NCBI RefSeq assembly: GCF_913058315.1
Contig: NZ_CAJXQY010000003.1
Location: 2,339-66,338, forward strand
Length of the DNA: 64,000 bases
Source: an uncultured Alteromonas sp.
GTDB lineage: Bacteria; Pseudomonadota; Gammaproteobacteria; Enterobacterales; Alteromonadaceae
Direction: 5' to 3'
Part shown: one piece after another, positions 36,197 through 53,014 of the stretch
Layout of the letters: each line of letters starts with the position of its first letter
Position numbering within the stretch: position 1 is the stretch's first letter
The notes under the pieces: model-generated
Databases searched by the model: none
Told to the model about the DNA's origin: nothing
What the model saw: only the letters and a program-made list of their open reading frames with translations
Made by a program: the position numbers and the translations under genes

Positions 36197-36212
36197 ATGT
36201 TACGTGTAACAT
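36197..36212. promoter_or_regulatory. GntR (gluconate repressor) operator upstream of gntR
   Basis: ATGTTA-CGTG-TAACAT, an exact ATGTTA-N4-TAACAT. Confidence 0.85.
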
Positions 36213-36247
36213 GTTTGTCCGACTTGTTTGTACATCTGTTAACATTT

Positions 36248-37243: not shown

Positions 37244-37779
37244 CCCTGTGCATTGAAGGGCAGGTGACGCTGAATATCCGCAACCAGGTCAGCGATGGGT
37301 AATTCCACATCAGCAGTGTAAACATCGGGTTCCCGCTCGTCGGGGCGTTCCAGGGTGGTGAACTGGCTGGTCAGCATGCGGGCTTTCATAAAATGTGCCT
37401 GGCGCGCTTCCATACGGCGCTTAATCAAGTCAAAACTCCCCTCCAGAAACACAAATTGCACACGGCTGATATGTTGTCTGAATACATCGCGGTATTGTTT
37501 TTTTAACGCTGAGCAAACAATGACCACCGGAATGTTGGCGGCCAGGCTCTTTTCAGCTGTGGCGGCAATGAGTTTAAGCCAGGGCGCACGGTCGTCATCA
37601 TTGAGCGCTTCACCGCGTGACATTTTGGCAATATTTTCGGCCGGGTGCAGGTCATCGCCGTCAACAAACCGAGCCCCGCTAGCCTCAGCCAGACGTTCTC
37701 CAACCGTACTTTTACCACTGCCGCTGACGCCCATTACTATAATGCAACTGGGCGCAGCGTTTTTATCGATTGTTGTCAT
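37240..37779 (-). CDS. gntK: Gluconokinase (GntK/IdnK family)
   Basis: MGVSGSGKST P-loop, DGDDLHP..N..KM, DDDRAPWL, CSALKKQYRD and SQFTTLE. Confidence 0.93.
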   Translation of the reverse strand: MTTIDKNAAPSCIIVMGVSGSGKSTVGERLAEASGARFVDGDDLHPAENIAKMSRGEALNDDDRAPWLKLIAATAEKSLAANIPVVIVCSALKKQYRDVFRQHISRVQFVFLEGSFDLIKRRMEARQAHFMKARMLTSQFTTLERPDEREPDVYTADVELPIADLVADIQRHLPFNAQG

Positions 37780-37819
37780 AGAGTCTGCTTGCGTTCTTGT
37801 TAAAAAAATGTTCTGCTAA

Positions 37820-37835
37820 ATGTTATGCGTAACAT
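37820..37835. promoter_or_regulatory. GntR operator between divergent gntK and gntP
   Basis: ATGTTA-TGCG-TAACAT. Confidence 0.85.
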
Positions 37836-37891
37836 TTTAGCCCGGGTTTCGACCTGTGTGAATAGTAAATTTAAGAATAAACTGAGATTCC

Positions 37892-39268
37892 ATGGATATT
37901 GCGAGCAATCAAACTGACAATATTGTCTTACTGTTAACCGGTCTGACTATGGTGTTAGTCCTGATGGGACTGATTATTGTGGCCCGGGTGCATGCCCTAA
38001 TTGCGTTAATTCTGGTGAGTCTGATCACCGCCCTGGTGACCGGTATCGGTGCCGCTGACGTGTTACCCGTGATGATGCAGGGCTTTGGTAGTACGCTGGC
38101 TGCAGTGGCCCTGCTGGTAGGCCTTGGCGGTATGATTGGTAAGTTACTTGAGAGTAGCGGCGGGGCAGATGTACTGGCTCAGCGGATGATCAGTCTGTTT
38201 GGTCTGGAACGTGCGCCGCTGGCGCTGGGTATTACTTCGCTGTTGTTCGGATTTCCCATCTTTTTTGATGCCGGCTTAATCGTCATGATGCCGATTCTAC
38301 TGAGCGTGGCGAGACGTTTACAGCAATCAACCTTAATAACCGTGTTACCCGCTGCGGGCGCATTTGCGGTAATGCACGCCTTTGTTCCACCTCATCCCGG
38401 GCCGGTGGCAGCGGCTGATTTACTGGGCGCTAATATCGGGCTGTTGCTGATTATTGGTACGCTCATCGCCATCCCCACGTGGTTTTTGGGGAGCTACCTT
38501 TATGCCATGTATGCCGGTAAACGATTTACTATCGAATTGCCAGCGTGGTTTACCAACAACGATAGCCACGGTACTGGCCAGTGGCAGCCTTCGTTTGCCA
38601 GGGTTATTGCGGTGCTGCTACTGCCGTTTGGTCTGATATGTCTTGATACGGTGGTTAATACGTTGCAGGTGGCCGGAATGTTACCGGAACAATCCTCACT
38701 GTTAAGTGGACTGCGGTTACTCGGCAAAACGCCGGTGGCACTGCTGTTAACGTTACTGATGGCGTTTGGTTTATTTCGTAAACAGTTCTCCCGTAAGCAA
38801 TACGAGGCACTCTGCAATGATGCCCTCGGACCGCTTAGCGCAGTCATTCTGGTTACCGGCGCCGGGGGAATGTTTGGTGGCGTTTTGCGGGCCGGGGGAA
38901 TTGGCGATGCCTTTGCTCAGTTACTGGTGGATAACGGTTTACCGGTAATCGTGGCGGCATTTGTGATTTCTGTTTGTTTGCGCGTTGCACAAGGCTCAGC
39001 CACGGTGGCCCTTACCACTACCGCTGCATTGATTGCGCCGGTCGTGACTCAGGTCCCCGGCCTCAGCGCCGTGGATTTATGCTGTATTGTGATTGCCATT
39101 GCCGGTGGTGCGACAGTGCTGTCGCATTTTAATGATTCTGGCTTTTGGCTGGTGTCGAGGTTACTGCAAATGGATGAAAAGACGACGTTAAAAACCTGGA
39201 CAGTAATGGAAACCTTATTAGGCTCAATCGCGTTTGTACTGGCGCTCCTGCTGAGCGCCGTATTCTAA
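37892..39268 (+). CDS. GntP-family gluconate:H+ symporter
   Basis: FVPPHPGP, LRVAQGSATVA and SHFNDSGFWLV motifs. Confidence 0.9.
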   Translation: MDIASNQTDNIVLLLTGLTMVLVLMGLIIVARVHALIALILVSLITALVTGIGAADVLPVMMQGFGSTLAAVALLVGLGGMIGKLLESSGGADVLAQRMISLFGLERAPLALGITSLLFGFPIFFDAGLIVMMPILLSVARRLQQSTLITVLPAAGAFAVMHAFVPPHPGPVAAADLLGANIGLLLIIGTLIAIPTWFLGSYLYAMYAGKRFTIELPAWFTNNDSHGTGQWQPSFARVIAVLLLPFGLICLDTVVNTLQVAGMLPEQSSLLSGLRLLGKTPVALLLTLLMAFGLFRKQFSRKQYEALCNDALGPLSAVILVTGAGGMFGGVLRAGGIGDAFAQLLVDNGLPVIVAAFVISVCLRVAQGSATVALTTTAALIAPVVTQVPGLSAVDLCCIVIAIAGGATVLSHFNDSGFWLVSRLLQMDEKTTLKTWTVMETLLGSIAFVLALLLSAVF

Positions 39269-39275
39269 GGCTGGC

Positions 39276-40385
39276 TTATTCTGACTCGGGGGGCGAGGGC
39301 AGGCCAAATGAGCTTAAAGCGAGTTCGTAAGTGCCGGCCTGAACACCGTTTAAAGGCGCATAGTTAGGGGCATTGCTGGGAATAAAGCTGACTTTATTAA
39401 ACAGCAGCGGCTGAATTTGTTTAATAATCGCCGGAATAAACTGCGGGTACTTGGTCATTGGTCCACCCAATACAAACATTTTGGGGTTGATGACCGCGGC
39501 AATGGTGGCCAATGTACTGCCGATTTGTGCAATAGCGGGGTGTTGGCTTAACTCCACGCCTTCCTCCAGCGCTTGCTGTAAGTGATGATTAGAAACAAAG
39601 TCCTGCAGGTTCTCGTCTTTATTGACCATAATATGCCCAATTTCGCCGGAGATGCCCGTAGAGCCTCTAATCAGATGATTATCCAGATAAATCCCGGCGC
39701 CAATACCTTCGCCAAAATAAATGAAAACGAAATCGGATACATTTTTAGCGATGCCCAGAGTTTTCTCGGCCAGTGTGGCCCAGTTTACATCGTTATCCAA
39801 AGTGACCGGGCATTCAAAATGCTCTTGCAGCAGCGTTTTGAAGTTAATGCCATGAATAATACTGAATTTAGAGTAGGGCAACGCCAGGATCTCACCGGTT
39901 TGAGAATTCACCGGCACCGCCACTGAAACACCAATCGCCAGTAGCGGGGATGACTGGTCTTGTACTGCAAGGCCAATAAAGCGCAGGATGGCGTTGGCGA
40001 GTTCCGCCTGCTGCCATCCGGGGTCAATATAAAAACACTGGTCCCGGATCACTTTAAGCGATAAATCAGTCAGCCTTAACTGGATCTGCTTCACATCAAT
40101 AGCAATGGCGAGTGTCAGCCCTTTTGCGGCGTTAATTTCGTAAATAACACCGGCGCGGCCCTGCTTGTTCTTGGTCTTTCTGGTGGTTTCTACTACCAGG
40201 CCGCTTTTTTCCAGTCGCTGCGCAGATTCAGAAATCGTCGGGCGGGAAATACCGGTTTTCTTGGCTATGGCGGCTCGCGTCATTGGACCATGTTCTTTCA
40301 GACAATGAAAAAATTGCCTGTCGGTCATCAGAGCGAGTGGTGTGCCTTGTTGTAGGGGGTCTGTTTGTTTCATTTTTATTAACAC
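39276..40385 (-). CDS. ROK-family transcriptional regulator lacking the Cys-rich Zn loop
   Basis: N-terminal wHTH (TRAAIAKKTGISRPTIS...GRAG), DNDVNWATLAE, GIGAGI and GEIGH; GTG 40385 or ATG 40373 start. Confidence 0.85.
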   Translation of the reverse strand: MLIKMKQTDPLQQGTPLALMTDRQFFHCLKEHGPMTRAAIAKKTGISRPTISESAQRLEKSGLVVETTRKTKNKQGRAGVIYEINAAKGLTLAIAIDVKQIQLRLTDLSLKVIRDQCFYIDPGWQQAELANAILRFIGLAVQDQSSPLLAIGVSVAVPVNSQTGEILALPYSKFSIIHGINFKTLLQEHFECPVTLDNDVNWATLAEKTLGIAKNVSDFVFIYFGEGIGAGIYLDNHLIRGSTGISGEIGHIMVNKDENLQDFVSNHHLQQALEEGVELSQHPAIAQIGSTLATIAAVINPKMFVLGGPMTKYPQFIPAIIKQIQPLLFNKVSFIPSNAPNYAPLNGVQAGTYELALSSFGLPSPPESE

Positions 40386-40906
40386 ATTTCTCTACTGATT
40401 CGCTCAGTTTGATTATTATTTCATTAGGCAACAAATGGTTCCGTTAGCGGTATGTTAAATCATCGTTGCAAAATGTTTTGTTAATATACCTGCTTTTTAA
40501 ATTCTTAAAAGGCTTTTCCAGCAAATGAGTGCTGCTTTGCACTAATTGATAATAAGTCAGGCACAAAATCCAGTATTGTACAAATTAACACTATGCTTAA
40601 ACCATAAATAGTAAATATAAGCTTCTGAAATATAATAATAAATTAAATTCCTTTTTGGGCGTTCTGCATTCAAAGGCTCAATTTTACCTTTAAACACCTG
40701 TTTAATATACACAGAATTGATAGCCGATATTCATCAGTTTTGTACATTTTATCGATTAGAATGACGGTGTTTCATTAACTTTTTAGTGACTAAGTACAAA
40801 GCAAAGATCACACCACATAAGGTAAAAGTGTTAAAATCTTATCAATTAGTTAAGGTGCTTTACAAAAAGCTTGCATTGTTACGAAAATGTAACTATACAT
40901 ATGGGG

Positions 40907-41110
40907 CGTTACAAACGGTTAACCTGATTTACCGCTTGTAACGGTTCAATACGGATTGAGAGAACTGTATTGAATTTAGCACTGCGTTTAGGCAATAGCG
41001 GGTCAGCCTGCACTTAATTACCGGTTAATCGGTTGGGTATCAGATAAGCGATGATTAAGGCCAACAGCGCAAATAATTAAAAAAGTGTTAATCTCATTGG
41101 AAACCAAATT
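40907..41110 (+). other. Structured 5' leader of the TonB receptor operon (candidate cis-regulatory RNA)
   Basis: Tandem hairpins CGTTACAA/TTGTAACG (40907-40943) and TTCAATAC/GTATTGAA (40945-40974), downstream of a TTGCAT-17-TATACA promoter-like element (40871-40899). Confidence 0.35.
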
Positions 41111-44100
41111 ATGTTTTATAAAAGCAAGCTAGCAACTGCTGTATCCGGGGCACTATATGTGATGGTCGCCACAGGCGTTCAGGCACAACAAGCGGAAACA
41201 GTTGAAAAGATCGAAGTACGCGGCGTTCGTGGCAGTCTGTCACAATCAATGAACGTAAAACGTCAGTCTACAGGTGTTGTTGACGCCATCTCTGCTGAAG
41301 ACATGGGTAAATTCCCGGATACTAACCTGGCTGAGTCATTACAGCGTATCACTGGTGTATCGATTAACCGTGTAAACGGTGAAGGTTCTGAAGTAACCGT
41401 TCGTGGTTTTGGTGGTAACTTTAACCTTATCACTCTGAACGGTCGTCAGATGCCAGCCGCTAACGTTGCCTCTATTACAGGTAACCCGCTCGACCAGGGC
41501 GCGTCTGGTACCACTCGTTCATTCGACTTCTCTAACCTGGCATCAGAAGGTGTTAGCGGCATTGAAGTTTATAAAACAGGTCGCGCAGCGGTACCTTCAG
41601 GTGGTATCGGTGCAACAATCAACATTAATACATTAAAGCCACTGGCACAGGGTGATAACCGTGCGTCGGTAGGGGTTAAAGCCGTTAAAGACGAAAGTGG
41701 TGATGGCGTAACACCTGAGATGAGCGGTGTGGCCAACTGGGTTAACGATAACGGTAACTTCGGTGTGTCTGTATTCGGTTCTTACCAGGAGCGTGATTCT
41801 GGTAGCCGTCACATGAGTGTTGAAAACTATCAGTTATATAACTGGGACGTAAACTCACCAGGTACTTTTGGTCTGGTGCAGGGCGCTAACGTCACCAATG
41901 CACCAAATCAGGGACAGTTGGTTGCTATGCCATCTAACCTGGGTTTAGGTGTTAACCACGATAACCGTGAACGTGTCAACGGTATGCTGACTGTTCAGTA
42001 TGCTCCAAGTGATGAAATGACGATCACTGCCGATGCGACTTATGCCAGCAACGAAATTCAGTCAACTTCAGTGGTTGACGGTATCTGGTTTGCACGTCAG
42101 TTCACTGATATGGAATTTGACGGTAACCCGGTAGTGGCTACGCCTATTCGTTTTACCGAAGACATTGATGGCGGTAAAGACTTCTTCTTCCAAAACCTGG
42201 TTATGGGTGCAAAAGATGAGTTGTCATCATTTGGCTTTAACGTTGACTGGTGGGCAAATGATTCACTGAACCTGCGTTTTGACGCGAACGTTGCGGAAGC
42301 AAAAAGTGGCGGTGCTGGTCCCTATGGTAAAAACGTAATTCGTTTCAACGTAGCGGGTGCAACCGCGGGTTGGCAGACTGTTGACTTCGGTCAGCGCATG
42401 CCACAGGCGAGCATCGTGGTTGACGATTCTCAGAAAGGTAACGATAACGGTATCTTCGACCTGCCAGACGTAGGTCCTCAGGTTACCCGTGCGATTTCTT
42501 CTGACCAGACGTCTGACGTTGCTCAGTTCCGTTTAGACGGTACCTGGGATCAGGGTTCAGATATCAAACTTGATTTCGGTGTGGGTTACATGAGCACTGA
42601 AATGAACCAGGTTCGTTACGAAACTGAAGCACAGCTGGGTGGCTGGGGTGTATCTGATGTAGGTAACATTCCTGAAGGTCTGCTGGAAATCGGTTGTACA
42701 GCCTGTGCATTTGAAGATCATGACATGAGCGGCGTTGCCGGTGCAGACGCTATGGCTGTTCCCGCTGGCGCGACCACTATCTCTCTGGGTAGCGTATCGT
42801 TCGTTGGTAACGCAGTACACCTGTTAGAAGGCGTTGCTCCGGCATACGGTTTCACTCCAGGCGATCTGCCAGCCGTTGCGTCTGACAACAACACTGTTAA
42901 AGAAGACATCATGTCACTTTACGGTATGGCAACAATGGACGGCGAAATTGGTGGCTTTGAAGCTAACCTGGTAGTGGGTTTACGTTATGAGAAGACAGAC
43001 GTTGAGTCTATCTCTCTGCAATCAGTACCTGAGCAAATCATCTGGTTATCAGATAACGATTTCCGTATCCAGCTGGGTAGCGGTACCGATGCATTGTCAG
43101 AGAAGCACTCTTATGAGGCACTGCTGCCGAACATCGATTTGTCAGTTAACCTGACCGATGATTTAAAAGCCCGTTTCTCTTACAGCATGACCCTGGCTCG
43201 TCCTGCTTACAACCAGATGTACACTGCAACCAGCATTGGCGCGCCTAGCCGCCCAACTTACCTGGGTGGTCAGGGTTCTGGTAGTCGCGGTAACGCAGCA
43301 CTGGATCCGCTGGAGTCAAACAACTTCGACCTGTCACTGGAATACTACTACGGTGAGTCGAGCATGGTGTCTGTGGGTTACTACCGTAAAGACGTAGATA
43401 ACTTCGTAGGTACTCAACAGGTATCACAAAACCTGTTTGGCTTACTTGACCCAACTTCAGGTCAGGCTGGCACCGTTTCTGGCGATGCGATTGCTGAACT
43501 GGAATCACGTGGTATCGAAGTTACAGAACGTAACTACTTCACCATGACAGCACTGCTGTCTAACCCGGATGCATTCCCGGGTGGCGCAGATGACTTCGAG
43601 GAAGGTCAGGCGTTTGCAGATGACGTATTTGCAAACTACAGTGTTGGTCCGGTAGCGGGCGATCCAAACATGCTGTTTGAGGTAACTCAGCCAGTGAACA
43701 ACCAAAGCGCTCGTATCTCTGGTTACGAGTTAGCATGGCAGCACTTCTTCGGTGAGTCAGGCTTTGGTTATCAGGCTAACTTCACCATCGTAGACGGTGA
43801 TATCGGTTACGACGTAGGTGCTGATCCAGCCCTTGACCAGTTTGCTCTGGAAGGTCTGTCAGACAGTGCTAACATCGTTCTGATTTACGAAATGGACGGT
43901 TTGTCTGCGCGTGTTGCTTACAACTGGCGTGACTCGTTCCTGAGCGAAGTTAACCGTGGCGTATCTTCTGTTCGTAACCCGCTGTTTATCGACGAGTACG
44001 AGCAAGTAGACGTTAACGTAAGCTACGAGTTCAGCGAAAATCTGACTGTCAGCATGGATATCATCAACCTGACTGAAGAAGGCCAGCGCCAGTATGGACG

Positions 44101-44173
44101 CAGCTACAACAACACCTTCTTTATCCAGGAACTGGACAGACGCTACGTTCTGAACGCGCGTTACACGTTCTAA
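41111..44173 (+). CDS. TonB-dependent receptor (sugar/Xanthomonas-Caulobacter type)
   Basis: Signal peptide, TonB box VEKIEVRG, plug DAISAEDMGKFPDTNLAESLQRITGV, C-terminal NARYTF. Confidence 0.95.
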   Translation: MFYKSKLATAVSGALYVMVATGVQAQQAETVEKIEVRGVRGSLSQSMNVKRQSTGVVDAISAEDMGKFPDTNLAESLQRITGVSINRVNGEGSEVTVRGFGGNFNLITLNGRQMPAANVASITGNPLDQGASGTTRSFDFSNLASEGVSGIEVYKTGRAAVPSGGIGATININTLKPLAQGDNRASVGVKAVKDESGDGVTPEMSGVANWVNDNGNFGVSVFGSYQERDSGSRHMSVENYQLYNWDVNSPGTFGLVQGANVTNAPNQGQLVAMPSNLGLGVNHDNRERVNGMLTVQYAPSDEMTITADATYASNEIQSTSVVDGIWFARQFTDMEFDGNPVVATPIRFTEDIDGGKDFFFQNLVMGAKDELSSFGFNVDWWANDSLNLRFDANVAEAKSGGAGPYGKNVIRFNVAGATAGWQTVDFGQRMPQASIVVDDSQKGNDNGIFDLPDVGPQVTRAISSDQTSDVAQFRLDGTWDQGSDIKLDFGVGYMSTEMNQVRYETEAQLGGWGVSDVGNIPEGLLEIGCTACAFEDHDMSGVAGADAMAVPAGATTISLGSVSFVGNAVHLLEGVAPAYGFTPGDLPAVASDNNTVKEDIMSLYGMATMDGEIGGFEANLVVGLRYEKTDVESISLQSVPEQIIWLSDNDFRIQLGSGTDALSEKHSYEALLPNIDLSVNLTDDLKARFSYSMTLARPAYNQMYTATSIGAPSRPTYLGGQGSGSRGNAALDPLESNNFDLSLEYYYGESSMVSVGYYRKDVDNFVGTQQVSQNLFGLLDPTSGQAGTVSGDAIAELESRGIEVTERNYFTMTALLSNPDAFPGGADDFEEGQAFADDVFANYSVGPVAGDPNMLFEVTQPVNNQSARISGYELAWQHFFGESGFGYQANFTIVDGDIGYDVGADPALDQFALEGLSDSANIVLIYEMDGLSARVAYNWRDSFLSEVNRGVSSVRNPLFIDEYEQVDVNVSYEFSENLTVSMDIINLTEEGQRQYGRSYNNTFFIQELDRRYVLNARYTF

Positions 44174-44184
44174 GTGATGTAAAA

Positions 44185-44213
44185 CCTGACCGGCGCCCCC
44201 TGTGCCGGTCAGG
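44185..44213 (+). other. GC-rich hairpin without a U-tract after the TBDR gene
   Basis: CCTGACCGGC-N9-GCCGGTCAGG followed by CATTTCC. Confidence 0.55.
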
Positions 44214-44312
44214 CATTTCCCTGTTGTATTCCAGTCAGCATTTGCCTGTCATCACAGCTAAGGGTAGGATGCAGACTGACAGTTTCTTCTTAGCTATTTA
44301 GCGAATTTTCCT

Positions 44313-45038
44313 ATGTCTAATATTGCCGTTTTAAACAACGTTGATCACGCCGATATCAAAATCAGTGTCAGTGATACCCACAGCGTTAGCGATAACGTAA
44401 ATCGTTGTCAGATCTATGCCTCTGAGATCACTGAATTACAAAAAGAATTCCCCATCCTCATTTATCGCGCCGAAGGCTCTGAGCTGCTGCAGCTGCACGC
44501 GATTCTGGGGCTGGAAAAAAATGAAAACCTGTTCTTATCCGCGACCGGATGGACGACTCGTTATGTACCGGCATTACTGGCCCGCGGCCCGTTTAGCATT
44601 GGTTATAGTAAAAATGACAATGGTGAACCGACCGATCCGAAAATATGCCTGGATATGGACGATGCCCGGGTTAATACTTCTCAAGGGGAGGCGGTGTTTA
44701 TGCCCATGGGCGGCGAATCGCAATATTTACAGTATGTGAAAACAGCCCTGCAAACCATCGAAACCGGCGCGCAATTCAACCATACGTTGTTTACTTTAAT
44801 CAATGAGCTGGACTTACTTGAGCCGGTGTCTATACAGATCAAACTGAGTAACGTTGAGCAGGTAAACCTGAATAATTACTACACGATTAATCAGCAAAAG
44901 CTTAGCGCACTTGACAACAATCAACTCGCCAGGCTCAATCAGTACGGTATGCTTAGTGCCTTATTTTTTATTCTGTCTTCAATGGGTAACTTCCAGCGTC
45001 TCATCGAACTGAAGAATGCTAAATCGGCAGTACTGTAA
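44313..45038 (+). CDS. SapC-family (Pass1-like) protein of unknown function
   Basis: EITELQKEFPILIYR, AILGLEKNENLF, W..RYVPALLARGPF and SMGNFQRLI; typical position after a TBDR. Confidence 0.85.
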   Translation: MSNIAVLNNVDHADIKISVSDTHSVSDNVNRCQIYASEITELQKEFPILIYRAEGSELLQLHAILGLEKNENLFLSATGWTTRYVPALLARGPFSIGYSKNDNGEPTDPKICLDMDDARVNTSQGEAVFMPMGGESQYLQYVKTALQTIETGAQFNHTLFTLINELDLLEPVSIQIKLSNVEQVNLNNYYTINQQKLSALDNNQLARLNQYGMLSALFFILSSMGNFQRLIELKNAKSAVL

Positions 45039-45058
45039 TTAACTAAGGACGCATTACC

Positions 45059-46084
45059 ATGACGGCCAATCAGGTACTTGTGTTAGAGGGCATTTCACCC
45101 GACAACATTCCTTTTGACGATCTTTTTGCGTTAAATAAACCGGTCATTCTAAAAGGGCTGGTAAAACACTGGCCATTGGTTGAGGCCGGAATGCAATCGC
45201 CGGAGCAGGTGATGGACTTGCTCGGTGAACATGACGCCGGTAATCCTTTGCTGGTGTATCGGGCGCCAGCCACCATAAACGCCAGGTTTGGCTACAACGA
45301 AACCTGCACGGGATTTAATTACCAAAGTGAAAAAGCCCGTCTGCGCGACGTGCTGGCCGAGATCAAAGCTGGCCTCAGCAGTGAGGAGCACGAATACCTC
45401 TACATAAACTCCCTGCGCTTTGACCACGGTTTGCCAACACTTAACCAAATGAATACGCTTAATTTTGAGCATCCGGAATTTGCCGGTAACCAGCCGGTCC
45501 CCAAAATCTGGATCGGCACCGAATCGGTGGCCGCCGCGCATTTCGACCAACCTAAAAATATTGCCTGTTGTGTGCTCGGTAAACGCCGGTTTACGTTATT
45601 TCCGCCTGAACAGGTAGACAATCTGTATCCCGGTCCGCTGTCACCAACGCCCGGTGGGCAGGTGGTTACCACCGCTAATCTTGATGAGCCCGACTTTGAA
45701 AAATTCCCACGCTTAAAAACAGCGCTGGAAAATGCCTACATTGCTGATCTACAACCCGGTGACGGACTGTATTACCCCAGCATGTGGTGGCATGAAGTCA
45801 GGGCTTTCGACCGCTTTAATGTGATGGTTAACTTTTGGTGGATGACCGCTAAACCTTATTTGGGCAACCCGATGGATGTGTTGATGCATGGCATGCTGAC
45901 GCTGCGTGATAAACCGGCACAGGAAAAAGCCGCGTGGCGGGCATTGTTTGACTATTATGTGTTTGGTGACGGCGAAAAAGTCATCGAGCATTTGCCGGTG
46001 GAATGTCATGGCCCCCTGGCGCAGATGGATGAATTATCGGCGCGCCGTTTACGCGCAATGTTACTGAATAACCTTAATCGATAA
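45059..46084 (+). CDS. Cupin-like JmjC/2OG-Fe(II) oxygenase-type protein
   Basis: IWIG, HFD (HxD), GKRRFTLFPP, PSMWWHEV (distal His) and NVMVNFWW. Confidence 0.88.
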   Translation: MTANQVLVLEGISPDNIPFDDLFALNKPVILKGLVKHWPLVEAGMQSPEQVMDLLGEHDAGNPLLVYRAPATINARFGYNETCTGFNYQSEKARLRDVLAEIKAGLSSEEHEYLYINSLRFDHGLPTLNQMNTLNFEHPEFAGNQPVPKIWIGTESVAAAHFDQPKNIACCVLGKRRFTLFPPEQVDNLYPGPLSPTPGGQVVTTANLDEPDFEKFPRLKTALENAYIADLQPGDGLYYPSMWWHEVRAFDRFNVMVNFWWMTAKPYLGNPMDVLMHGMLTLRDKPAQEKAAWRALFDYYVFGDGEKVIEHLPVECHGPLAQMDELSARRLRAMLLNNLNR

Positions 46085-46095
46085 ATAGGCTTAAA

Positions 46096-47595
46096 TTGAT
46101 GGCGCAAAAGAAAACCCGTGTTGTTGTAGCCGGCGGCGGCACTGCCGGATGGTTAACCGCGTTTAGTTTAGTGACCCGTTTAGGTAACGTGCTGGATATC
46201 ACGTTAGTTGAGTCTGATCAGATTGGCACCGTGGGAGTAGGGGAAGCGACTATTCCTACCATGTGCAATTTTCATCAACTGATGGGCATCAACGAACAAG
46301 AGTTTATGGCCGCAACAAACGCCACCTTTAAGCTGGGTATTCAGTTTGATAACTGGGCAAACGACGGTGACAGTTATATTCACTCTTTTGGCGAAATCGG
46401 CCAGCGTTCATGGATGGCCGAATTTCACGAGTTCTGGATGGAAGCCGCGGCTAATGGTCAGCAGGATAGTCTGGAAGACTATTGCCTGGAATTAAAAGCT
46501 GCCAAAGCCAATAAGTTTGCTACTAAGATTGGTAATCGGCCGCTTAACTTTGCCTACCACCTCGACGCTACGGCCTATGCTGCTTACCTTAGAAAGAAAT
46601 CCGAAGCCGCCGGTGTTACCCGTTGTGAGGGTAAAATTCAGTCGGTGGATACCGATCCTCAAAGTGGTAACTTAACCCGCCTGACACTGGATACGGGTAT
46701 TGCGATCGAAGGGGATGTGTTTATTGATTGCACCGGTTTCCGCGGGCTGTTAATAGGCGAACATCTTGGTGTCGGATATGAAGACTGGAGTCACTGGCTG
46801 GCTGCCGATCGGGCGATTGCTATTCAAACCCAATCTACCGAAGCGCCCAAACCATACACTATCGCCACGGCTCATAAAGCCGGTTGGCAGTGGCGCATTC
46901 CGCTACAGTCACGGGTGGGCAACGGGATTGTTTATAGCAGTCGCTTTTTAAGTGACGAGGAAGCACTGGCAACCCTTAAGCAAAACCTCGACGGCGAAAT
47001 GCTTACCGAGCCCCGTTATCTTAAATTTAAGACCGGCCGACGGGAAAAAGCCTGGCATAAGAACTGTATTTCCGTTGGATTGGCCAGTGGCTTTTTAGAG
47101 CCGCTGGAGTCAACCAGTATACATCTGGTTACCACCGCGCTTATCCGACTAATGAAGTTATTCCCATTCAGCAGCGATCACGAACTACTGGCAGAGCAGT
47201 ACAATCGTGAAACGCAGAAAGAAATGGAGACTATTCGCGATTTTATTATTCTGCACTACAACCTGACCAAACGTGATGACAGTGATTTCTGGGATCATTA
47301 CCGCACCATGGATATTCCGGAACCCTTAGCCCATCGCATGGCTATCTTTGCACAAAATGGCTATGTGTGGCCAGACGACGTGGCGCTGTTCAGAGTCGAT
47401 TCCTGGGTGCAGGTAATGATGGGCCAGGGCCTGATGCCAGCACAGCATCACGGGGCAAGTCGAATGTTACCCACCGACGGCTTAAAACAGCAACTCAGTG
47501 CATTTAAGCAATCGGTTAATAATGCACTGGGCCAGTTACCCGCCCATGCCGACTTTATTGCCCGGTATTGTCCTGCCGGCGAGCAGGTTAAGTAA
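46096..47595 (+). CDS. Flavin-dependent halogenase family protein 1 (tryptophan-halogenase-like)
   Basis: GGGTAG, GVGEAT, ATFKLGI (catalytic Lys), GWQWRIP and FLEPLEST. Confidence 0.92.
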   Translation: MMAQKKTRVVVAGGGTAGWLTAFSLVTRLGNVLDITLVESDQIGTVGVGEATIPTMCNFHQLMGINEQEFMAATNATFKLGIQFDNWANDGDSYIHSFGEIGQRSWMAEFHEFWMEAAANGQQDSLEDYCLELKAAKANKFATKIGNRPLNFAYHLDATAYAAYLRKKSEAAGVTRCEGKIQSVDTDPQSGNLTRLTLDTGIAIEGDVFIDCTGFRGLLIGEHLGVGYEDWSHWLAADRAIAIQTQSTEAPKPYTIATAHKAGWQWRIPLQSRVGNGIVYSSRFLSDEEALATLKQNLDGEMLTEPRYLKFKTGRREKAWHKNCISVGLASGFLEPLESTSIHLVTTALIRLMKLFPFSSDHELLAEQYNRETQKEMETIRDFIILHYNLTKRDDSDFWDHYRTMDIPEPLAHRMAIFAQNGYVWPDDVALFRVDSWVQVMMGQGLMPAQHHGASRMLPTDGLKQQLSAFKQSVNNALGQLPAHADFIARYCPAGEQVK

Positions 47596-47604
47596 GGGCC
47601 AGGC

Positions 47605-49155
47605 ATGCAAAAGAATATTACCCGGGTTGTGGTTGTAGGCGGTGGTACCGCCGGTTGGCTTACCGCTGGCATTATTGCGGCCAAGAACCCACTGGTTGGC
47701 GAGAACCGTCACACTGAAGTCATACTGGTGGAATCGCCTGACGTTAAAAACCTTGGCGTGGGTGAAGGAACCTGGCCTACTATGCGCGATACGCTGCGTT
47801 TGCTGGGCATTGCCGAAAAGCAGTTCCTCAGTGAATGTGAGGCCAGTTTTAAGCAGGCTTCAAAGTTTGTTGGCTGGCAGCAGGGCGGTGAGGATAAGTA
47901 TTACCATCCCTTTACAGCTCCTGCAGGTTTTGGTGCGGTTAATCTGGTTGAAGCCTGGCACGATGAAGGCTGTCCGGGCGACTTTGAATCCTGGGTTTGT
48001 GCCCAGGGCATGGCATGCGAGCGCTATCAGGCGCCGAAAATGCCCCAATTACCCGAATACGCTTACAACTTTAATTACGGCTATCATTTAAGCGCCGATA
48101 AATTTGTTGCGCTCCTTCATCGTCATTGCACGGAGCAACTCGGTGTGCAGTATAAAAGCGCCCATGTTGCCGGCATCCAGAGTCATCCCGATGGCGCAAT
48201 AGCCGCTGTTGAACTGGCGCAAGGCGAGCCGTTGGCAGGTGACTTATTTATTGATTGCAGCGGTTTTAGTGCGCGCTTAATCGGGCAGCATTACAACGTT
48301 CCCTTTGTTTCTAAACGGCATATTTTATTTAACGACACGGCAGTGGCAGCCCAGGTGAACCATGCCAGTGACCAAACGCCAATCGCCTCGTGTACGGTTG
48401 CTACGGCAAAACCTCACGGCTGGGTATGGGATATCGCGTTACAGTCGCGCCGCGGTATCGGCCATGTATTTGCCAGCGAGTTAACTACCGAGACCCAGGC
48501 CGAAGACGCGTTAAGAGCTTATATCAGCAGTGACGAGTCTTTAAGCCAGAAAGCGATAATGTCGCGGACCATCCGTTTCGACCCCGGCCACCGGGCGCGA
48601 TTCTGGGAACAAAACTGCGTTGCAATCGGGGTGTCCGCTGGTTTTGTTGAACCGCTGGAAGCCACGGCGCTGGTACTGATTGAAAAGTCGGCAGAATGGA
48701 TAGCCGACCAACTGCCACGCAGCCGGGCTGCCATGGCGGTGCTTCGTAAACGCTACAATGAAATGACGGACGCACGGTGGGGCGAGATTATTGACTTCAT
48801 CAAACTGCATTATGTGTTAAGTGAGCGCCGCGACAGCCCCTATTGGCAGGCCCATGCCGATCCTGCATCCTGGACGGACAGCCTGCAGGAAGCGTTGCAG
48901 TTATGGCAAAGTCAGCCGCCTGGCCTGTTAGAAACTAATCTGCGCCAGGAGCTTTTTTCCTCCGCCAGTAAACAATACGTATTGTATGGTATGGGGTTTC
49001 GCTCCCATGACTGGCAGCCGGGTGGCACTACCAGCCTGCGCAAACCACTAATCGAACGGGTGCGCCGGGAGTTTTTGCATAACGGCGATAAACTGTTAGC
49101 GCAGTTGCCAACAAACCGGGAGTATTTTAACCGGCTTAAAGCGGCTAGCGCTTAG
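47605..49155 (+). CDS. Flavin-dependent halogenase family protein 2 (variant motif)
   Basis: GGGTAG, GVGEGT, ASFKQA, GWVWDIA (in place of WxWxIP) and FVEPLEAT. Confidence 0.88.
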   Translation: MQKNITRVVVVGGGTAGWLTAGIIAAKNPLVGENRHTEVILVESPDVKNLGVGEGTWPTMRDTLRLLGIAEKQFLSECEASFKQASKFVGWQQGGEDKYYHPFTAPAGFGAVNLVEAWHDEGCPGDFESWVCAQGMACERYQAPKMPQLPEYAYNFNYGYHLSADKFVALLHRHCTEQLGVQYKSAHVAGIQSHPDGAIAAVELAQGEPLAGDLFIDCSGFSARLIGQHYNVPFVSKRHILFNDTAVAAQVNHASDQTPIASCTVATAKPHGWVWDIALQSRRGIGHVFASELTTETQAEDALRAYISSDESLSQKAIMSRTIRFDPGHRARFWEQNCVAIGVSAGFVEPLEATALVLIEKSAEWIADQLPRSRAAMAVLRKRYNEMTDARWGEIIDFIKLHYVLSERRDSPYWQAHADPASWTDSLQEALQLWQSQPPGLLETNLRQELFSSASKQYVLYGMGFRSHDWQPGGTTSLRKPLIERVRREFLHNGDKLLAQLPTNREYFNRLKAASA

Positions 49156-49303
49156 CAATAATATAAACCGCGTGCACAATGCCCGGGATATAGCCCAGCA
49201 GCGTCAGTAAAATATTGATCCAGAATTGCGCGCCAATACCGACTTGCAGAAACACGCCCAGCGGTGGCAGTAAAATTGACAATAATATGCGTAGAATATC
49301 CAT
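49145..49303 (-). CDS. YqaE/Pmp3 family small membrane protein
   Basis: 52 aa MDILRILLSILLPPLGVFL...LGYIPGIVHAVYII; overlaps the halogenase stop by 11 nt. Confidence 0.92.
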   Translation of the reverse strand: MDILRILLSILLPPLGVFLQVGIGAQFWINILLTLLGYIPGIVHAVYIIAKR

Positions 49304-49366
49304 GGTTTTCACCTTATTTGTGTAGAAAACCATAGATGTTGCAAGGGCCTTGCCAGTTAGTGGTCA

Positions 49367-50599
49367 TTAGTGACAGCAACTGGCCTGGGAAGACTTAGTC
49401 ATTTTTTGCTGCAGTGCCTGCCAGCCATTTCTAATCATTAAAGCTCCGAGGAGCACAGCGCACAGTGCGTAGATCGGTGAAATCTCACCGTGTTCGTGGG
49501 TTGACTGACCAAGCGCAATCCACGACTGCAGTGAAAAATGACTCACCAGCAGGTTCAGGGTGTAACCCAGCAAAATACTGGCGCTCATCACACTTGTGAT
49601 ATACAGCATGAGGGTTCGTTTGCCCATTTCCTTAGCAATCATCCCCATGGTTGAAATATTCGTGGCCGGGCCGGCCAGTAAAAATACCAGCACGGCACCA
49701 GGAGATAAGCCGGCACTTAAAAAGCCTACTGCAATAGGCGTCGATGCTGTGGCACAGATATACATCGGAATCCCAATCACCGCCATAACCAGCATGGCCA
49801 CCAGACCATCGCCCCAGCTGGTCAGAAAGTCGGTGGGTACCCAGGTTTGAATTGCTGCGGCGAGCGCCAGACCTATCAACAACCAGACGGTAATATCAAT
49901 AAGCAGTTTGCCACTGGAAAATTGCCAGATAGCGGCGACTTTATCTGTAAAGCCGGGTTTATTTGCATGTGAGGCTGAGCTGCTTTCGCTGTCGCAGCAA
50001 GAAGATGTACTCGCTGGTGTCGGCTGTGCTTTTTCAGTGCTGCAGCAGGATGGCGTGCTGACCGGCTCAGCTGGCTTGCTGCTACAACAGGATGATGATG
50101 TTTCTTCTACGGCAGGTTTACTGCTACAGCAGCTTTGGGGGGCTTCGGCCGGTGTAGCAGGTGACTCATTGCTGGTTGCTGATGCTTCTTTATCGAACCA
50201 TTTCACCATCATACCGGCGTAGATAGCGCTGATGATGGCACAAAATGGACGGACTATGGCGAACAGCGGGCCAAGCAGCGCATAGGACACAGAAACGGAA
50301 TCCACACCGGTTTCCGGGGTCGACACCAGAAACGATACGGTGGCGGGCTTTGAGGCACCGCTACGGCGTAAGCCCACCGCTGCAGGAATCACCCCACAGG
50401 AACACAGAGGCAGAGGCGCGCCAATCACCGCTGCTTTACCAACGGCGCCGGCACTGGCACTGCCCATGTGTTTTTGTAACATACTGATGGGGACGAGTTC
50501 ATGCATTACGCCGGCTACCAGCAGGCCGAGCAATAACCACGGCGCTGACTCCATAAACAGTAATAAAAAGTTTTGTGCTAACAGGGCGATATCGCTCAT
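49367..50599 (-). CDS. SO_0444-family Cu/Zn efflux permease (DUF318 type)
   Basis: ESAPWLLLG, PLPLCSCGVIP, PETGVDS, PMYICATASTP and AGPATN; ATGA overlap with zntR. Confidence 0.88.
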   Translation of the reverse strand: MSDIALLAQNFLLLFMESAPWLLLGLLVAGVMHELVPISMLQKHMGSASAGAVGKAAVIGAPLPLCSCGVIPAAVGLRRSGASKPATVSFLVSTPETGVDSVSVSYALLGPLFAIVRPFCAIISAIYAGMMVKWFDKEASATSNESPATPAEAPQSCCSSKPAVEETSSSCCSSKPAEPVSTPSCCSTEKAQPTPASTSSCCDSESSSASHANKPGFTDKVAAIWQFSSGKLLIDITVWLLIGLALAAAIQTWVPTDFLTSWGDGLVAMLVMAVIGIPMYICATASTPIAVGFLSAGLSPGAVLVFLLAGPATNISTMGMIAKEMGKRTLMLYITSVMSASILLGYTLNLLVSHFSLQSWIALGQSTHEHGEISPIYALCAVLLGALMIRNGWQALQQKMTKSSQASCCH

Positions 50600-51018
50600 G
50601 ATGCCTCCATGGAATCGAGGGCCTGCAGGATAGAGCAGTGTTCGGCGCTTTCAGGGCCGCCACAACAGGCCGTATGCAGGGTTTTTAATGACATGCGTAT
50701 TTTCTCCAGCTCCGCAATCTTTTCATCCAGCTCCTGAACCTTGCGCGCTGTTACCTGTTTCACTTCTTCGCAGGTGTGCGCATCGGGGTGCAGGCGCAGT
50801 TCCAGTAACTCGCTGATTTCATCGAGTGTAAATCCAACCGCTTTGGCTCGCTTAATAAATTGCAAGCGGGCGAGGTCGGTGCTTGAAAACAACCGGTAGC
50901 CGGCATCCGAGCGCAGTGACGCGTGCACCAGCCCTTTGTTTTCATAGAAACGCACGGTATCGACGGTTAGTCCGGTAAGCTTAGCCAACTGGCCAATTTT
51001 GTAATGTTTTGTCTTCAT
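50596..51018 (-). CDS. zntR: Zn(II)-responsive MerR-family regulator
   Basis: YKIGQLAK...DTVRFYE, HTC, and ACCG...HCSIL metal loop; true start MKTKH at 51018. Confidence 0.88.
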   Translation of the reverse strand: MKTKHYKIGQLAKLTGLTVDTVRFYENKGLVHASLRSDAGYRLFSSTDLARLQFIKRAKAVGFTLDEISELLELRLHPDAHTCEEVKQVTARKVQELDEKIAELEKIRMSLKTLHTACCGGPESAEHCSILQALDSMEAS

Positions 51019-51024
51019 GCTGTT

Positions 51025-51056
51025 AGTGTAAACCCTGGAGTTAGCTCCAGAGTCAA
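51025..51056 (-). promoter_or_regulatory. ZntR-type promoter/operator (20-bp spacer with dyad)
   Basis: Minus strand TTGACT-ctggagctaactccagggtt-TACACT with the dyad CTGGAG-N4-CTCCAG, closely like the E. coli zntA promoter. Confidence 0.85.
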
Positions 51057-51076
51057 GCATAGCAAAAAAACCGCAG

Positions 51077-51937
51077 TTACACAGTCGCTGCGATATCCCC
51101 GGTGCAGGTAATAAAGGCGTGAATGGCACTGGAGGGATTGTCCTTGCGCGACACCAGATAGGTCGGCGCACTGGCAATATCCGGTTCAACGGTTGCGACT
51201 TTAAGCCCGTCGGTTTGGTGCAGGGCCAGCAGGGAGCGCGGGACCATACCAATACCCATACCGGCTATAACACAGCCTATCATGGTAAAGTGGCTGGGGA
51301 TTTCTATTACTCGCTCGCAAGTATGCCCATGCTTTTTAAACCAGGTTTCCAGGCGGTGCCGGTAAGAGCAGCCTTTTTGATAGCCTACCATGGTCAGTGA
51401 GGCGGGTAAGTCGTTTAGGTCTGGCCAGTCTGAGGGCATGATAAGGACCAACTCCTCGTCGAAACACCGCACGCTGTTGAGACGGGGATCGTCGGGTGGA
51501 TCCGAAGCCATTGCCACATCCAGTTCGCCATCGATCACCTTGTCAATAAGCGGCATCGATGCCATGGTGAGTAATTCAATCTGAACGGCGTGATAATGCT
51601 GATGAAACGCCGATAGAATAAGCGGCAGTCGTGAGGCAGCACTACTTTCCATAGAGCCGAGGCGGAGTAATCCTGAGGGCTCTCCCTGGGTTAATTCGGC
51701 CAGGGCACTTTTGTGTAAGTGTAGTATCTGGTTGGCGTAATCGAGCAGCCGGAGTCCTGCGGAAGTAACGGTGAGACGGTTATTCGTGCGCAGAAAAAGC
51801 TCAACATTCAGTTCCTGTTCCAGTTTTTTGATACGAGCGGTCACGTTAGAGGGTACACGGTGCAGCGACTCAGCTGCCCGGCTAACACTATTATGCTCAA
51901 TGACTGCTTTAAAAACGGTAAGGTCGGCTATATCCAT
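51077..51937 (-). CDS. LysR-family transcriptional regulator
   Basis: SVSRAAESLHRVPSNVTARIKKLE HTH and LRLGSMES; start MDIADL at 51937. Confidence 0.92.
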   Translation of the reverse strand: MDIADLTVFKAVIEHNSVSRAAESLHRVPSNVTARIKKLEQELNVELFLRTNNRLTVTSAGLRLLDYANQILHLHKSALAELTQGEPSGLLRLGSMESSAASRLPLILSAFHQHYHAVQIELLTMASMPLIDKVIDGELDVAMASDPPDDPRLNSVRCFDEELVLIMPSDWPDLNDLPASLTMVGYQKGCSYRHRLETWFKKHGHTCERVIEIPSHFTMIGCVIAGMGIGMVPRSLLALHQTDGLKVATVEPDIASAPTYLVSRKDNPSSAIHAFITCTGDIAATV

Positions 51938-51993: not shown

Positions 51994-52072
51994 TTCTTTA
52001 TTATTCATTATAAGTGAATGGTTGGATAGCTTATACTTATCGACAATGAAATCAAGAAGGGAATGTAACCTA

Positions 52073-53014
52073 ATGAGTGAGACTAACGGGCAACCGCAAC
52101 CCCACGCAGGCAGTAGCCTGCCCAAAGCGGGGTTGGCCTACGCATTGTGTGCGGTCATGATTTGGACTGGATTCATTTTAGTCTCAAAGGCGGGCGCATT
52201 GGCAGCGCTTGCGATCCCGGACATGATTATGGTGCGTTTTGGCACGGCCTTTGTGTTGTTCTCACCTTTCATCTGGCAGCATCGCAAGGTCATTTGTCAG
52301 TGGCGCATGGCCGTTTTGGGCGGTATTGGCGGATTAGCCTATGCCTTGTCGGTATTTACCGGCTTTGCCAATGCGCCGGCAACCCATGCCGCACTATTAT
52401 TACCGGGCCTGATGCCGATTATGATTGCGGTCTTTGCGTATTTTATTGCCGGTGAACGTCATACTTTGTCTTCCTGGCTTGGTATTGCGGTAAGCAGCCT
52501 GGGCATTGCTGCATTGTTAACTGAAACGTTGCTGGTTGATAACCGGTACTGGTCCGGTGATGTGAGTTTTGTATTTGCGTGCGTGTGCTGGGGAATATTT
52601 ACGGTGTTATTGCGACGTTGGCAGTTTGCGCCATGGCACGCAACGCTGGGGATTATTGCCGTGACGACGCTGTTGTTTACGCCCGTTTATGTGTTGTGGT
52701 TACCACATAATCTCAGCGAAGCTTCCTGGCAAATGCTGGGGTTACAGGCTTTTTATCAGGGCGTAATGGCAACCACTATTCAGATGGTATTGTACGGTCG
52801 GGCGGTTCATCTGATTGGAGCAACGAGAATGGGCGGACTGATGGCGTTAGTGCCGGTTTTTGCCAGTGTTCTGGCTGTGCCCTTGTTTAACGAGCAGTGG
52901 ACGCCAGGGCTAACTATTGCGTTATTGCTAATTCTTGCCGGTACGCTGATCAGTAATTTTCCGGTACGGTTGGTCATTGGGAAGTGGCGCCGAAAGTCAT
53001 CCTGTACGGCGTAA
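52073..53014 (+). CDS. DMT/EamA family exporter
   Basis: About 10 TM segments in two EamA-like repeats; divergent from the LysR gene. Confidence 0.85.
   Translation: MSETNGQPQPHAGSSLPKAGLAYALCAVMIWTGFILVSKAGALAALAIPDMIMVRFGTAFVLFSPFIWQHRKVICQWRMAVLGGIGGLAYALSVFTGFANAPATHAALLLPGLMPIMIAVFAYFIAGERHTLSSWLGIAVSSLGIAALLTETLLVDNRYWSGDVSFVFACVCWGIFTVLLRRWQFAPWHATLGIIAVTTLLFTPVYVLWLPHNLSEASWQMLGLQAFYQGVMATTIQMVLYGRAVHLIGATRMGGLMALVPVFASVLAVPLFNEQWTPGLTIALLLILAGTLISNFPVRLVIGKWRRKSSCTA

Follow-up and report, generated by a model that had tools for sequence, protein, structure and literature searches.

In 2010, Iyer, Abhiman, de Souza and Aravind (PMC2938197) described a gene neighbourhood made up of a TonB receptor, SapC (an uncharacterised enzyme in their account), a JmjC protein and one to three tryptophan halogenases, sometimes joined by a classical 2-oxoglutarate (2OG) oxygenase, and predicted that it yields a halogenated siderophore-like metabolite. 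A 64-kb stretch of Alteromonas DNA (contig NZ_CAJXQY010000003.1; hereafter the window, whose positions serve as coordinates throughout) carries a locus that is a copy of this conserved proteobacterial module, which consists of a carbohydrate-type TonB-dependent receptor (TBDR), SapC, a JmjC hydroxylase and one or two halogenases. The locus resembles the published neighbourhood in its gene families, in its distribution over alpha- and gammaproteobacteria, and in having the Rossmann fold and catalytic lysine intact; the additional classical 2OG oxygenase of that report is comparable to DUF6445 or PhyH proteins encoded by relatives of the locus. Unlike the siderophore-like receptor predicted there, the receptor here appears to be of carbohydrate type, no Fur box precedes it, and its regulators and neighbours are sugar-related. 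The module having been described already, the locus adds no new kind of system; what is new is the evidence against the siderophore prediction, the glucose, beta-glucan and gluconate context, the transcription architecture, and a confident SapC fold without a solved relative. The initial annotation of this DNA held the gene set to be recurrent and without established function: our search of the full-text literature found no functional study of the module, but the set had been described, and a function predicted for it, in 2010. Two metatranscriptome studies of Colwellia report upregulation of a TBDR and a halogenase, the latter being read as antibiotic-related. We consider the descriptive part of our reading (the identity of the module, its parts, its sugar context and its asymmetric expression) about 90% probable, and hold its mechanistic part, that the substrate of the module enzymes is a protein or peptide, tentatively, at roughly 35%.

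Five genes make up the module:

41111-44173, + strand: TBDR gene, an open reading frame (ORF) of 1020 amino acids
44313-45038, + strand: SapC gene, an ORF of 241 amino acids
45059-46084, + strand: JmjC gene, an ORF of 341 amino acids
46096-47595, + strand: Hal1 gene, an ORF for a flavin-dependent halogenase
47605-49155, + strand: Hal2 gene, an ORF for a second flavin-dependent halogenase

The genes are co-directional, as first annotated, with intergenic gaps of 139, 20, 11 and 9 nt in order, the last three exactly as originally given.

Proteins of the module and their relatives

A scan with a SapC alignment, taking one genome per species, yields 80 related loci in which SapC identity ranges from 93% down to 37%, spread over Alteromonadaceae, Colwellia, Paraglaciecola, Porticoccaceae/SAR92, Steroidobacteraceae, Caulobacterales, Sphingomonadales and Hyphomonas, which agrees with the earlier claim that the set recurs in aquatic proteobacteria. 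The order TBDR, SapC, JmjC, halogenase is found in about 70 of the 80, in alpha- and gammaproteobacteria alike. Gene-order counts over the 75 loci with a SapC ORF place a co-directional TBDR immediately upstream of SapC (71/73), JmjC immediately downstream of SapC (73/75), a halogenase next after JmjC (67/70) and a second halogenase in 49 of 69. The flanks vary by lineage: a DUF6445 (2OG-oxygenase-like) neighbour is present in 25 loci; LacI, GntP permease and gluconokinase genes recur in 15-21 loci of several genera, as they do here at 36197-39268; an extracytoplasmic function (ECF) sigma factor and FecR with a second TBDR are recurrent; GH3 with an Exop_C domain occurs in 12 loci and GH30 in 4; and gluconolactonase, GMC oxidoreductase, gluconate-2-dehydrogenase subunit 3, GFO/IDH/MocA proteins and sugar-isomerase TIM barrels also recur. 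More distant SapC homologues belong to TBDR-SapC-Cupin_8-halogenase arrays adjoining GH3 or GH1 and a major facilitator superfamily transporter. The earlier statement that no carbohydrate-active enzyme is present thus stands for this window, but not for the context at large, given the gluconate genes upstream and the GH3, GH30 and GH1 genes of related loci.

A second module type consists of a TBDR, a Hal2-like halogenase, SapC and then DUF6445 or JmjC. It is found at L025 14967-20629, L028 15041-20676, L059 3-5808, L062 16-6159 and L075 1325-6208, often beside the first type, and the side-by-side paralogous modules of these loci each have their own TBDR, SapC, halogenase and oxygenase. DUF6445 itself weakly matches 2OG-FeII_Oxy_3 and phrog_1644, whose label 'minor coat protein' is probably a misnomer.

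The TBDR has a plug domain (PF07715, E 3e-17) and a barrel domain (PF00593, E 8e-30), and matches the TIGR01782 model (TonB-Xanth-Caul) with 633 bits, against a cut-off of 310, whereas haem and transferrin receptor models score merely 50-60 bits. Its N-terminus reads as a signal peptide, MFYKSKLATAVSGALYVMVATGVQA/QQ, followed by ETVEKIEVRG with the TonB-box-like EKIEVRG, and its C-terminus (...RYTF) ends in an aromatic phenylalanine. The profile matches identify it as a predicted carbohydrate-type receptor of the TonB-Xanth-Caul subfamily, the cargo of which we infer from gene context. Codon bias is strongest in the TBDR gene among the 52 genes of the window (effective number of codons, Nc, 38.2; next lowest 43.9), the SapC, JmjC, Hal1 and Hal2 genes having Nc values of 50-54. 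Comparison of the TBDR with the PDB gives no relative at E up to 1e-3. Residues W512, W645 and W939 are kept in module-linked TBDRs and not in 11 other TBDRs, a comparison set too small to bear weight. The protein belongs to the same Xanthomonas/Caulobacter paralogous family as the receptors of the carbohydrate utilization (CUT) loci of those genera (Blanvillain et al. 2007, PMC1790865), and, as in CUT loci, a sugar-type regulator and an inner-membrane sugar-acid permease are close by and glycoside hydrolases occur in related loci; unlike CUT loci, the window has no glycoside hydrolase, and the text of PMC1790865 does not mention halogenase, SapC or cupin partners.

Both halogenases match Trp_halogenase (PF04820; Hal1 E 1e-184, Hal2 E 3e-115), are 33% identical to each other, and have the following motifs:

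Hal1: GGGTAG13, lysine K79, second motif GWQWRIP, glutamate E338 (then S339)
Hal2: GGGTAG12, lysine K83, second motif GWVWDIA, glutamate E352

We take the lysine and glutamate of each, by motif position (FK..., EPLES), to correspond to K79/E346 of PrnA and K79/E357 of RebH. The GxGxxG motif of both enzymes is conserved in orthologues. At least 69 of 71 Hal1 orthologues keep K79, WxWxIP and E338, and the departures are limited to alignment gaps and a single I-to-T change; K79 is found in 70 of the 71, the alignment having a gap in the other, and E338 is invariant. In Hal2, K83 and E352 are invariant across orthologues, and the second motif has the form WxWxI[A/S/G], the proline being replaced in 48/48 orthologues and also in 9LTB. 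Hal1 aligns with Xcc4156 (6Y1W) over residues 7-494 with two single-residue gaps only (E 1.6e-173) and with BrvH (6FRL) at E 6.7e-136, and its motifs ATIPTM and HSFGE match the group C motifs ATIPxx and HxFGx tabulated in PMC8269204. By this similarity Hal1 is of the BrvH/Xcc4156 'group C' non-tryptophan halogenase type, with an activity that is predicted. Both of those enzymes have been assayed and crystallised, and both prefer bromide over chloride. Xcc4156 brominates only model substrates; BrvH does not accept tryptophan and brominates free indole at C3, with a turnover so low that its authors doubt that indole is the native substrate. A second halogenase gene adjoins that of BrvH, as it does that of Hal1. 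Hal2 matches 2PYX (E 8e-139) and 9LTB (E 1e-142), which are deposited as 'Tryptophan halogenase' with structures only, and the GW-x-WDIA form of the second motif is common to 9LTB and Hal2; no report on the biochemical function of either was found in the searchable literature.

The LodB, GoxB and QhpG families are distant matches of both halogenases (E 1e-8 to 1e-3), and these matches are so far below family cut-offs that they indicate analogy rather than membership. These flavoproteins modify a tryptophan of a partner protein to give a quinone cofactor, in the cytoplasm and before export, and so provide a precedent within the superfamily; unlike them, Hal1 and Hal2 keep the halogenase lysine and glutamate, and no quinoprotein partner is evident. 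Both halogenases also match phrog_2928, true phage homologues (from cyanophages and a pelagiphage) being 28-31% identical. Halogenases with 45-51% identity to Hal1 are encoded by MT835646.1 and MT837902.1, contigs of human faecal origin that are filed without annotation as 'Bacteriophage sp.' and may be bacterial DNA.

The JmjC protein matches Cupin_8 (E 3e-68), and its nearest solved relatives are FIH and JMJD5 (E ~1e-17). Its iron triad H161, D163 and H245 aligns to H199, D201 and H279 of FIH, and R176 aligns to K214 of FIH, which binds the 2OG C5-carboxylate, the role of R176 being read from this alignment; all four residues are invariant in 76 orthologues. Like FIH and JMJD5, the protein has the Cupin_8 fold family, the HxD...H triad and a basic residue at the 2OG position; unlike them, it differs in its N- and C-terminal parts, the similarity being confined to the catalytic core (residues 150-264). 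Judged from these alignments it is an FIH/JMJD5-like Fe(II)/2OG oxygenase and a predicted hydroxylase. The features that the initial annotation gave for these proteins are borne out: a sugar-type TBDR with codon usage like that of highly expressed genes, the full HxD...H triad of the JmjC protein, and the GxGxxG motif and catalytic lysine of both flavoenzymes.

SapC is covered in full by PF07277 (profile positions 1-220 of 220, E 7e-60), a family of 2,758 clusters at 50% identity, and its residues H12, E38, E71, N72, W80 and P86 are invariant in 75 orthologues. Across the loci SapC is the fastest-diverging protein of the module and Hal1 the slowest. An AlphaFold (AF2) model built from a 149-sequence alignment has a predicted local distance difference test score (pLDDT) of 94.7 and a predicted template modelling (pTM) score of 0.89, with a beta-rich N-terminal half and long C-terminal helices. 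Neither the PDB nor BFVD contains a significant neighbour of the model (best E 0.33 and 0.05, TM <0.2), and a SapC profile search against PDB sequences gave no match; SapC as a cupin or 2OG oxygenase is rejected on these grounds. An earlier model from a 20-sequence alignment was discarded (pLDDT 59.7, Foldseek matches meaningless). A distant SapC homologue (P0249; L086 9334-11971, L087 5794-8431) lies directly after genes for an SNF-family inner-membrane symporter and hydantoinase A/B and is followed at its 3' side by two ORFs without a Pfam match, with no TBDR, JmjC or halogenase there; SapC thus also occurs apart from TBDR genes.

DNA identity to Alteromonas oceani S35 and A. alba is about 88% for the region and is mosaic: across 40386-49155, compared with loci L002 and L004, it is about 84% for ROK, the intergenic region upstream, SapC and JmjC, and some ten points higher for TBDR (94.6%), the non-coding TBDR-SapC gap (95.7%), Hal1 (93.9%) and Hal2 (94.5%). 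Strain-level single-nucleotide polymorphisms are concentrated at 44476-45145 in DNA-like sequencing runs. The mosaic together with this cluster suggests recombination or cassette exchange within the module.

Upstream genes and transcription

The genes and elements that bear on expression of the module are these:

36197-37243, + strand: LacI-family regulator (Pfam)
37240-37779, - strand: gluconokinase-like kinase (Pfam)
37892-39268, + strand: GntP permease (Pfam)
36198-36211 and 37821-37834: GntR-type (LacI-family) operator palindromes TGTTA-N4-TAACA (sequence pattern)
39276-40385, - strand: ROK-family transcription regulator with helix-turn-helix and ROK domains, divergent from the TBDR gene (Pfam)
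40871-40899, + strand: candidate sigma-70 promoter of the TBDR gene, TTGCAT-17-TATACA, conserved in 12 loci
40908-40923, + strand: GTTA-N8-TAAC element GTTACAAACGGTTAAC, just 3' of the predicted transcription start, a candidate operator
44185-44230, + strand: GC-rich hairpin (predicted fold) directly after the TBDR stop, with a 12-bp stem, a 5-nt loop and a T-rich tail
44242-44270, + strand: promoter-like element TTGCCT-17-TAGGAT, conserved in loci L001-L011

The gluconate genes at 36197-39268 are a probable functional neighbour of the module, outside its core. The operator at 37821-37834 sits in the divergent intergenic region between the gluconokinase and GntP permease genes, and the position of the other one, on the annotated LacI start, suggests either autoregulation or a start codon further downstream. 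An orthologue of the ROK regulator occupies the same position in loci L001-L011, L023, L032 and L036, and both half-sites of GTTACAAACGGTTAAC are invariant in 12/12 ROK-linked loci while the flanks diverge. A TGTTAC-N6-GTAAC palindrome in the TBDR promoter shares its half-sites with gnt operators; we do not claim it as a GntR site because its spacing between TGTTA and TAACA is N8 rather than N4 and it is not conserved in relatives. The best match to a Fur box in the 725-nt upstream region has 8/19 mismatches, which is background level. An Rfam scan of 40300-49400 at E up to 1 found no RNA family, so the TBDR leader of about 205 nt is not a known riboswitch.

The hairpin after the TBDR gene is maintained by compensatory changes in relatives, and its form looks like a terminator, an attenuator or a 3'-end stabiliser; the promoter-like element that follows it may act as an internal promoter of SapC, JmjC, Hal1 and Hal2. 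The 139-nt TBDR-SapC gap has no coding potential and no start-to-stop ORF, and a precursor peptide encoded there was considered and rejected, since the indels that distinguish relatives have lengths not divisible by three and no small ORF is conserved among them.

The initial annotation had taken the five genes for one operon, and we examined this with RNA evidence from three metatranscriptome runs of related strains, the contigs of which are unstranded and may contain DNA. The contigs that extend furthest to the left start at 40905, 40940 and 40958. Contigs span two junctions within the enzyme genes (JmjC/Hal1 and Hal1/Hal2), and a further one connects the TBDR gene with SapC; contig depth is 30-90 over the TBDR gene versus 1-13 over the downstream genes, falling 3- to 20-fold past the TBDR gene. 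Three other runs labelled 'RNA?' (X1-X3) were rejected as expression data, their flat depth over both strands and intergenic regions and their Nextera ends being DNA-like. The junction-bridging contigs indicate that the four enzyme genes are probably one transcription unit, and to that extent support the proposed operon; against it stand the hairpin, the promoter-like element and the drop in depth after the TBDR gene. With a conserved hairpin and a possible internal promoter between TBDR and SapC, the locus is probably not a simple five-gene operon: the enzyme unit is probably fed by read-through, perhaps with a weak promoter of its own as well, and the TBDR is probably far more strongly expressed.

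Candidate substrates and roles

Analysis of the locus suggests that the module could work as follows: transcription from a sugar-responsive promoter that lies some 205 nt before the start codon would give very high expression of the TBDR, which would import a glucose-related carbohydrate, either an oligomer of the beta-glucan or beta-glucoside kind or an oxidised derivative entering the gluconate route; the hairpin would let a fraction of transcription pass, to which a weak internal promoter may add; the four proteins without signal peptides would be made in small, catalytic amounts in the cytoplasm; there the Fe/2OG hydroxylase, the open-site, bromide-preferring Hal1-type halogenase and Hal2 would act jointly and depend on O2; their joint substrate would be bulky and contain an aromatic group, and would not be free tryptophan; the likeliest target would be a protein or peptide residue, the leading candidates being the TBDR precursor and SapC itself; and SapC would give specificity or scaffolding. 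The module would in that case be an accessory of the transporter and not a secondary-metabolite pathway. SapC, JmjC, Hal1 and Hal2 read as lacking a signal peptide, which implies a cytoplasmic location. A protein or peptide substrate is favoured because the JmjC protein is of the protein-hydroxylase type, because the closest relatives of Hal1 have open active sites, because the enzymes would be present in catalytic amounts beside an abundant transporter, and because each paralogous transporter has its own enzyme set.

Several points weigh against this reading. For no such transporter, nor for SapC, is a modified residue known. Outer-membrane proteins cross the inner membrane unfolded, so a cytoplasmic modification must precede export. 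BrvH and Xcc4156 act in vitro on free indole and other small aromatics. The presence of JmjC, Hal2 and DUF6445 varies among relatives, and one SapC homologue stands beside the SNF symporter gene, without a TBDR. The RNA contigs are, as said, unstranded, derived from related strains and possibly mixed with DNA, and the carbohydrate cargo is deduced from neighbouring genes in a window that holds no glycoside hydrolase. A narrower version of the protein-substrate reading, which we consider unlikely, is that the four proteins form a maturation system of their own, which would brominate or chlorinate, and hydroxylate, specific residues of the TBDR precursor or of SapC before that protein takes up its function; SapC would then be either the specificity factor or a target yielding a protein-derived cofactor.

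The main rival to a protein or peptide substrate is tailoring of a free small molecule, an indole-like or phenolic compound, which we regard as possible but rather doubtful. Candidate substrates are an endogenous metabolite and the aglycone set free when an imported aromatic beta-glucoside is cleaved; the enzymes would turn it into a signal carrying bromine or a hydroxyl group, an intermediate of catabolism or a detoxified compound. The closeness of Hal1 to BrvH, which brominates indole at C3, and to Xcc4156, which brominates model substrates, points this way, as does the recurrence of the beta-glucosidase families GH1 and GH3 beside the module. However, the very low indole turnover of BrvH has led its own authors to question whether indole is the native substrate, and JmjC enzymes of the FIH/JMJD5 type are known to act on proteins or tRNA. 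The genes conserved with the module include neither an inner-membrane transporter that could take up an aglycone nor any for downstream catabolism, and the module is frequent in lineages from fresh water and soil, habitats poor in bromide.

By analogy with FIH, an oxygen-sensing protein hydroxylase and the closest relative of the JmjC protein, the enzymes, which depend on O2, 2OG and FADH2, might instead join with SapC in modifying a regulator or signalling component, in which case the module would tune synthesis or activity of the TBDR to oxygen, carbon or redox state. The low level of the enzymes relative to the TBDR would suit such a sensing role, and the adjoining regulators differ by lineage (ROK, AraC-PAS, ECF/FecR, LacI) while the module stays constant; but no regulator is conserved with the module, which leaves no obvious constant target, and to our knowledge halogenation has no precedent as a regulatory modification. 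We therefore rate this reading as improbable.

It is a little less probable still that the linkage is positional only, the four genes being an independent unit that travels with TBDR genes but serves some purpose other than transport. The hairpin resembling a terminator and the possible promoter of their own between TBDR and SapC, the identity mosaic with A. oceani (TBDR 94.6%, SapC and JmjC 84%, Hal1 and Hal2 94%) and the one SapC homologue without a TBDR would all accord with this, yet 71 of 73 loci keep the upstream TBDR over SapC identities of 93-37% and two proteobacterial classes while other flanks change, and a TBDR of its own also stands first in the second module type, whose gene order differs.

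Within the 64-kb window there is no flavin reductase, no nonribosomal peptide synthetase (NRPS) or polyketide synthase (the fab genes belonging to primary metabolism), no NRPS-independent siderophore (NIS) synthetase and no module-linked exporter, so the absence of a reductase, NRPS/polyketide synthase, precursor peptide and exporter reported in the initial annotation holds for the window; PADLOC defence-system models match none of the five proteins. A halogenated and hydroxylated, amino-acid-derived siderophore-like chelator, made with SapC as a biosynthetic enzyme and re-imported by the TBDR, was predicted from gene neighbourhoods (PMC2938197) and would be served by the intact catalytic residues of all the enzymes, but is very improbable, fitting poorly because of the carbohydrate-type receptor (633 bits versus 50-60 bits for the haem and transferrin models), the background-level Fur-box match, the sugar context with its ROK-type regulator and sugar-gene neighbours, and the lack of an NRPS, an NIS synthetase or a module-linked exporter, and the same four reasons exclude a classical natural-product cluster.

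Outer flanks and biological meaning

Further genes of the window, beyond the module, are these:

1673-3895, + strand: probable surface or adhesin-like protein of 740 amino acids that has five Big_1 bacterial Ig-like repeats and matches macroglobulin MG2/MG4 weakly
49145-49333, - strand: small hydrophobic ORF of 62 amino acids (52 from an internal Met), convergent with Hal2: MDILRILLSILLPPLGVFLQVGIGAQFWINILLTLLGYIPGIVHAVYIIAKR
49367-51252, - strand: ArsP_1-family permease with a Cys/Ser-rich low-complexity insert (CCSSKP... repeats) and a C-terminal CCH
52022-53014: EamA-family transporter (Pfam), separated from the module by other genes and outside the conserved set
53105-54937, - strand: full-length Peptidase_M2 (angiotensin-converting-enzyme-like), E 8.5e-224

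The 3' end of the small hydrophobic ORF overlaps the Hal2 stop codon, and its product presumably resembles a Pmp3/YqaE-type membrane peptide. Upstream of the ArsP_1 permease gene is one for a MerR-family regulator, and the two may form a pair that responds to metals or metalloids.

Homologues of the module are very common in marine and freshwater heterotrophs and account for a large share of the annotated 'tryptophan halogenase' genes in aquatic proteobacterial genomes and metatranscriptomes, genes that are regularly interpreted as belonging to antibiotic or secondary metabolism. The Alteromonas locus is a clean, single-copy example from a culturable genus, with a candidate promoter, operator and attenuator, and makes the question of their role directly testable. 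If the four proteins are indeed a maturation system, they would represent the first post-translational modification by flavin halogenases to be linked to nutrient uptake, and would account for thousands of 'tryptophan halogenases' in aquatic proteobacteria that have no natural product to their name. More generally, if the module enzymes are accessories of carbohydrate transporters, 'halogenase' signals in the ocean would need another interpretation, and TonB-dependent sugar uptake in proteobacteria would include an additional, hitherto unknown step.

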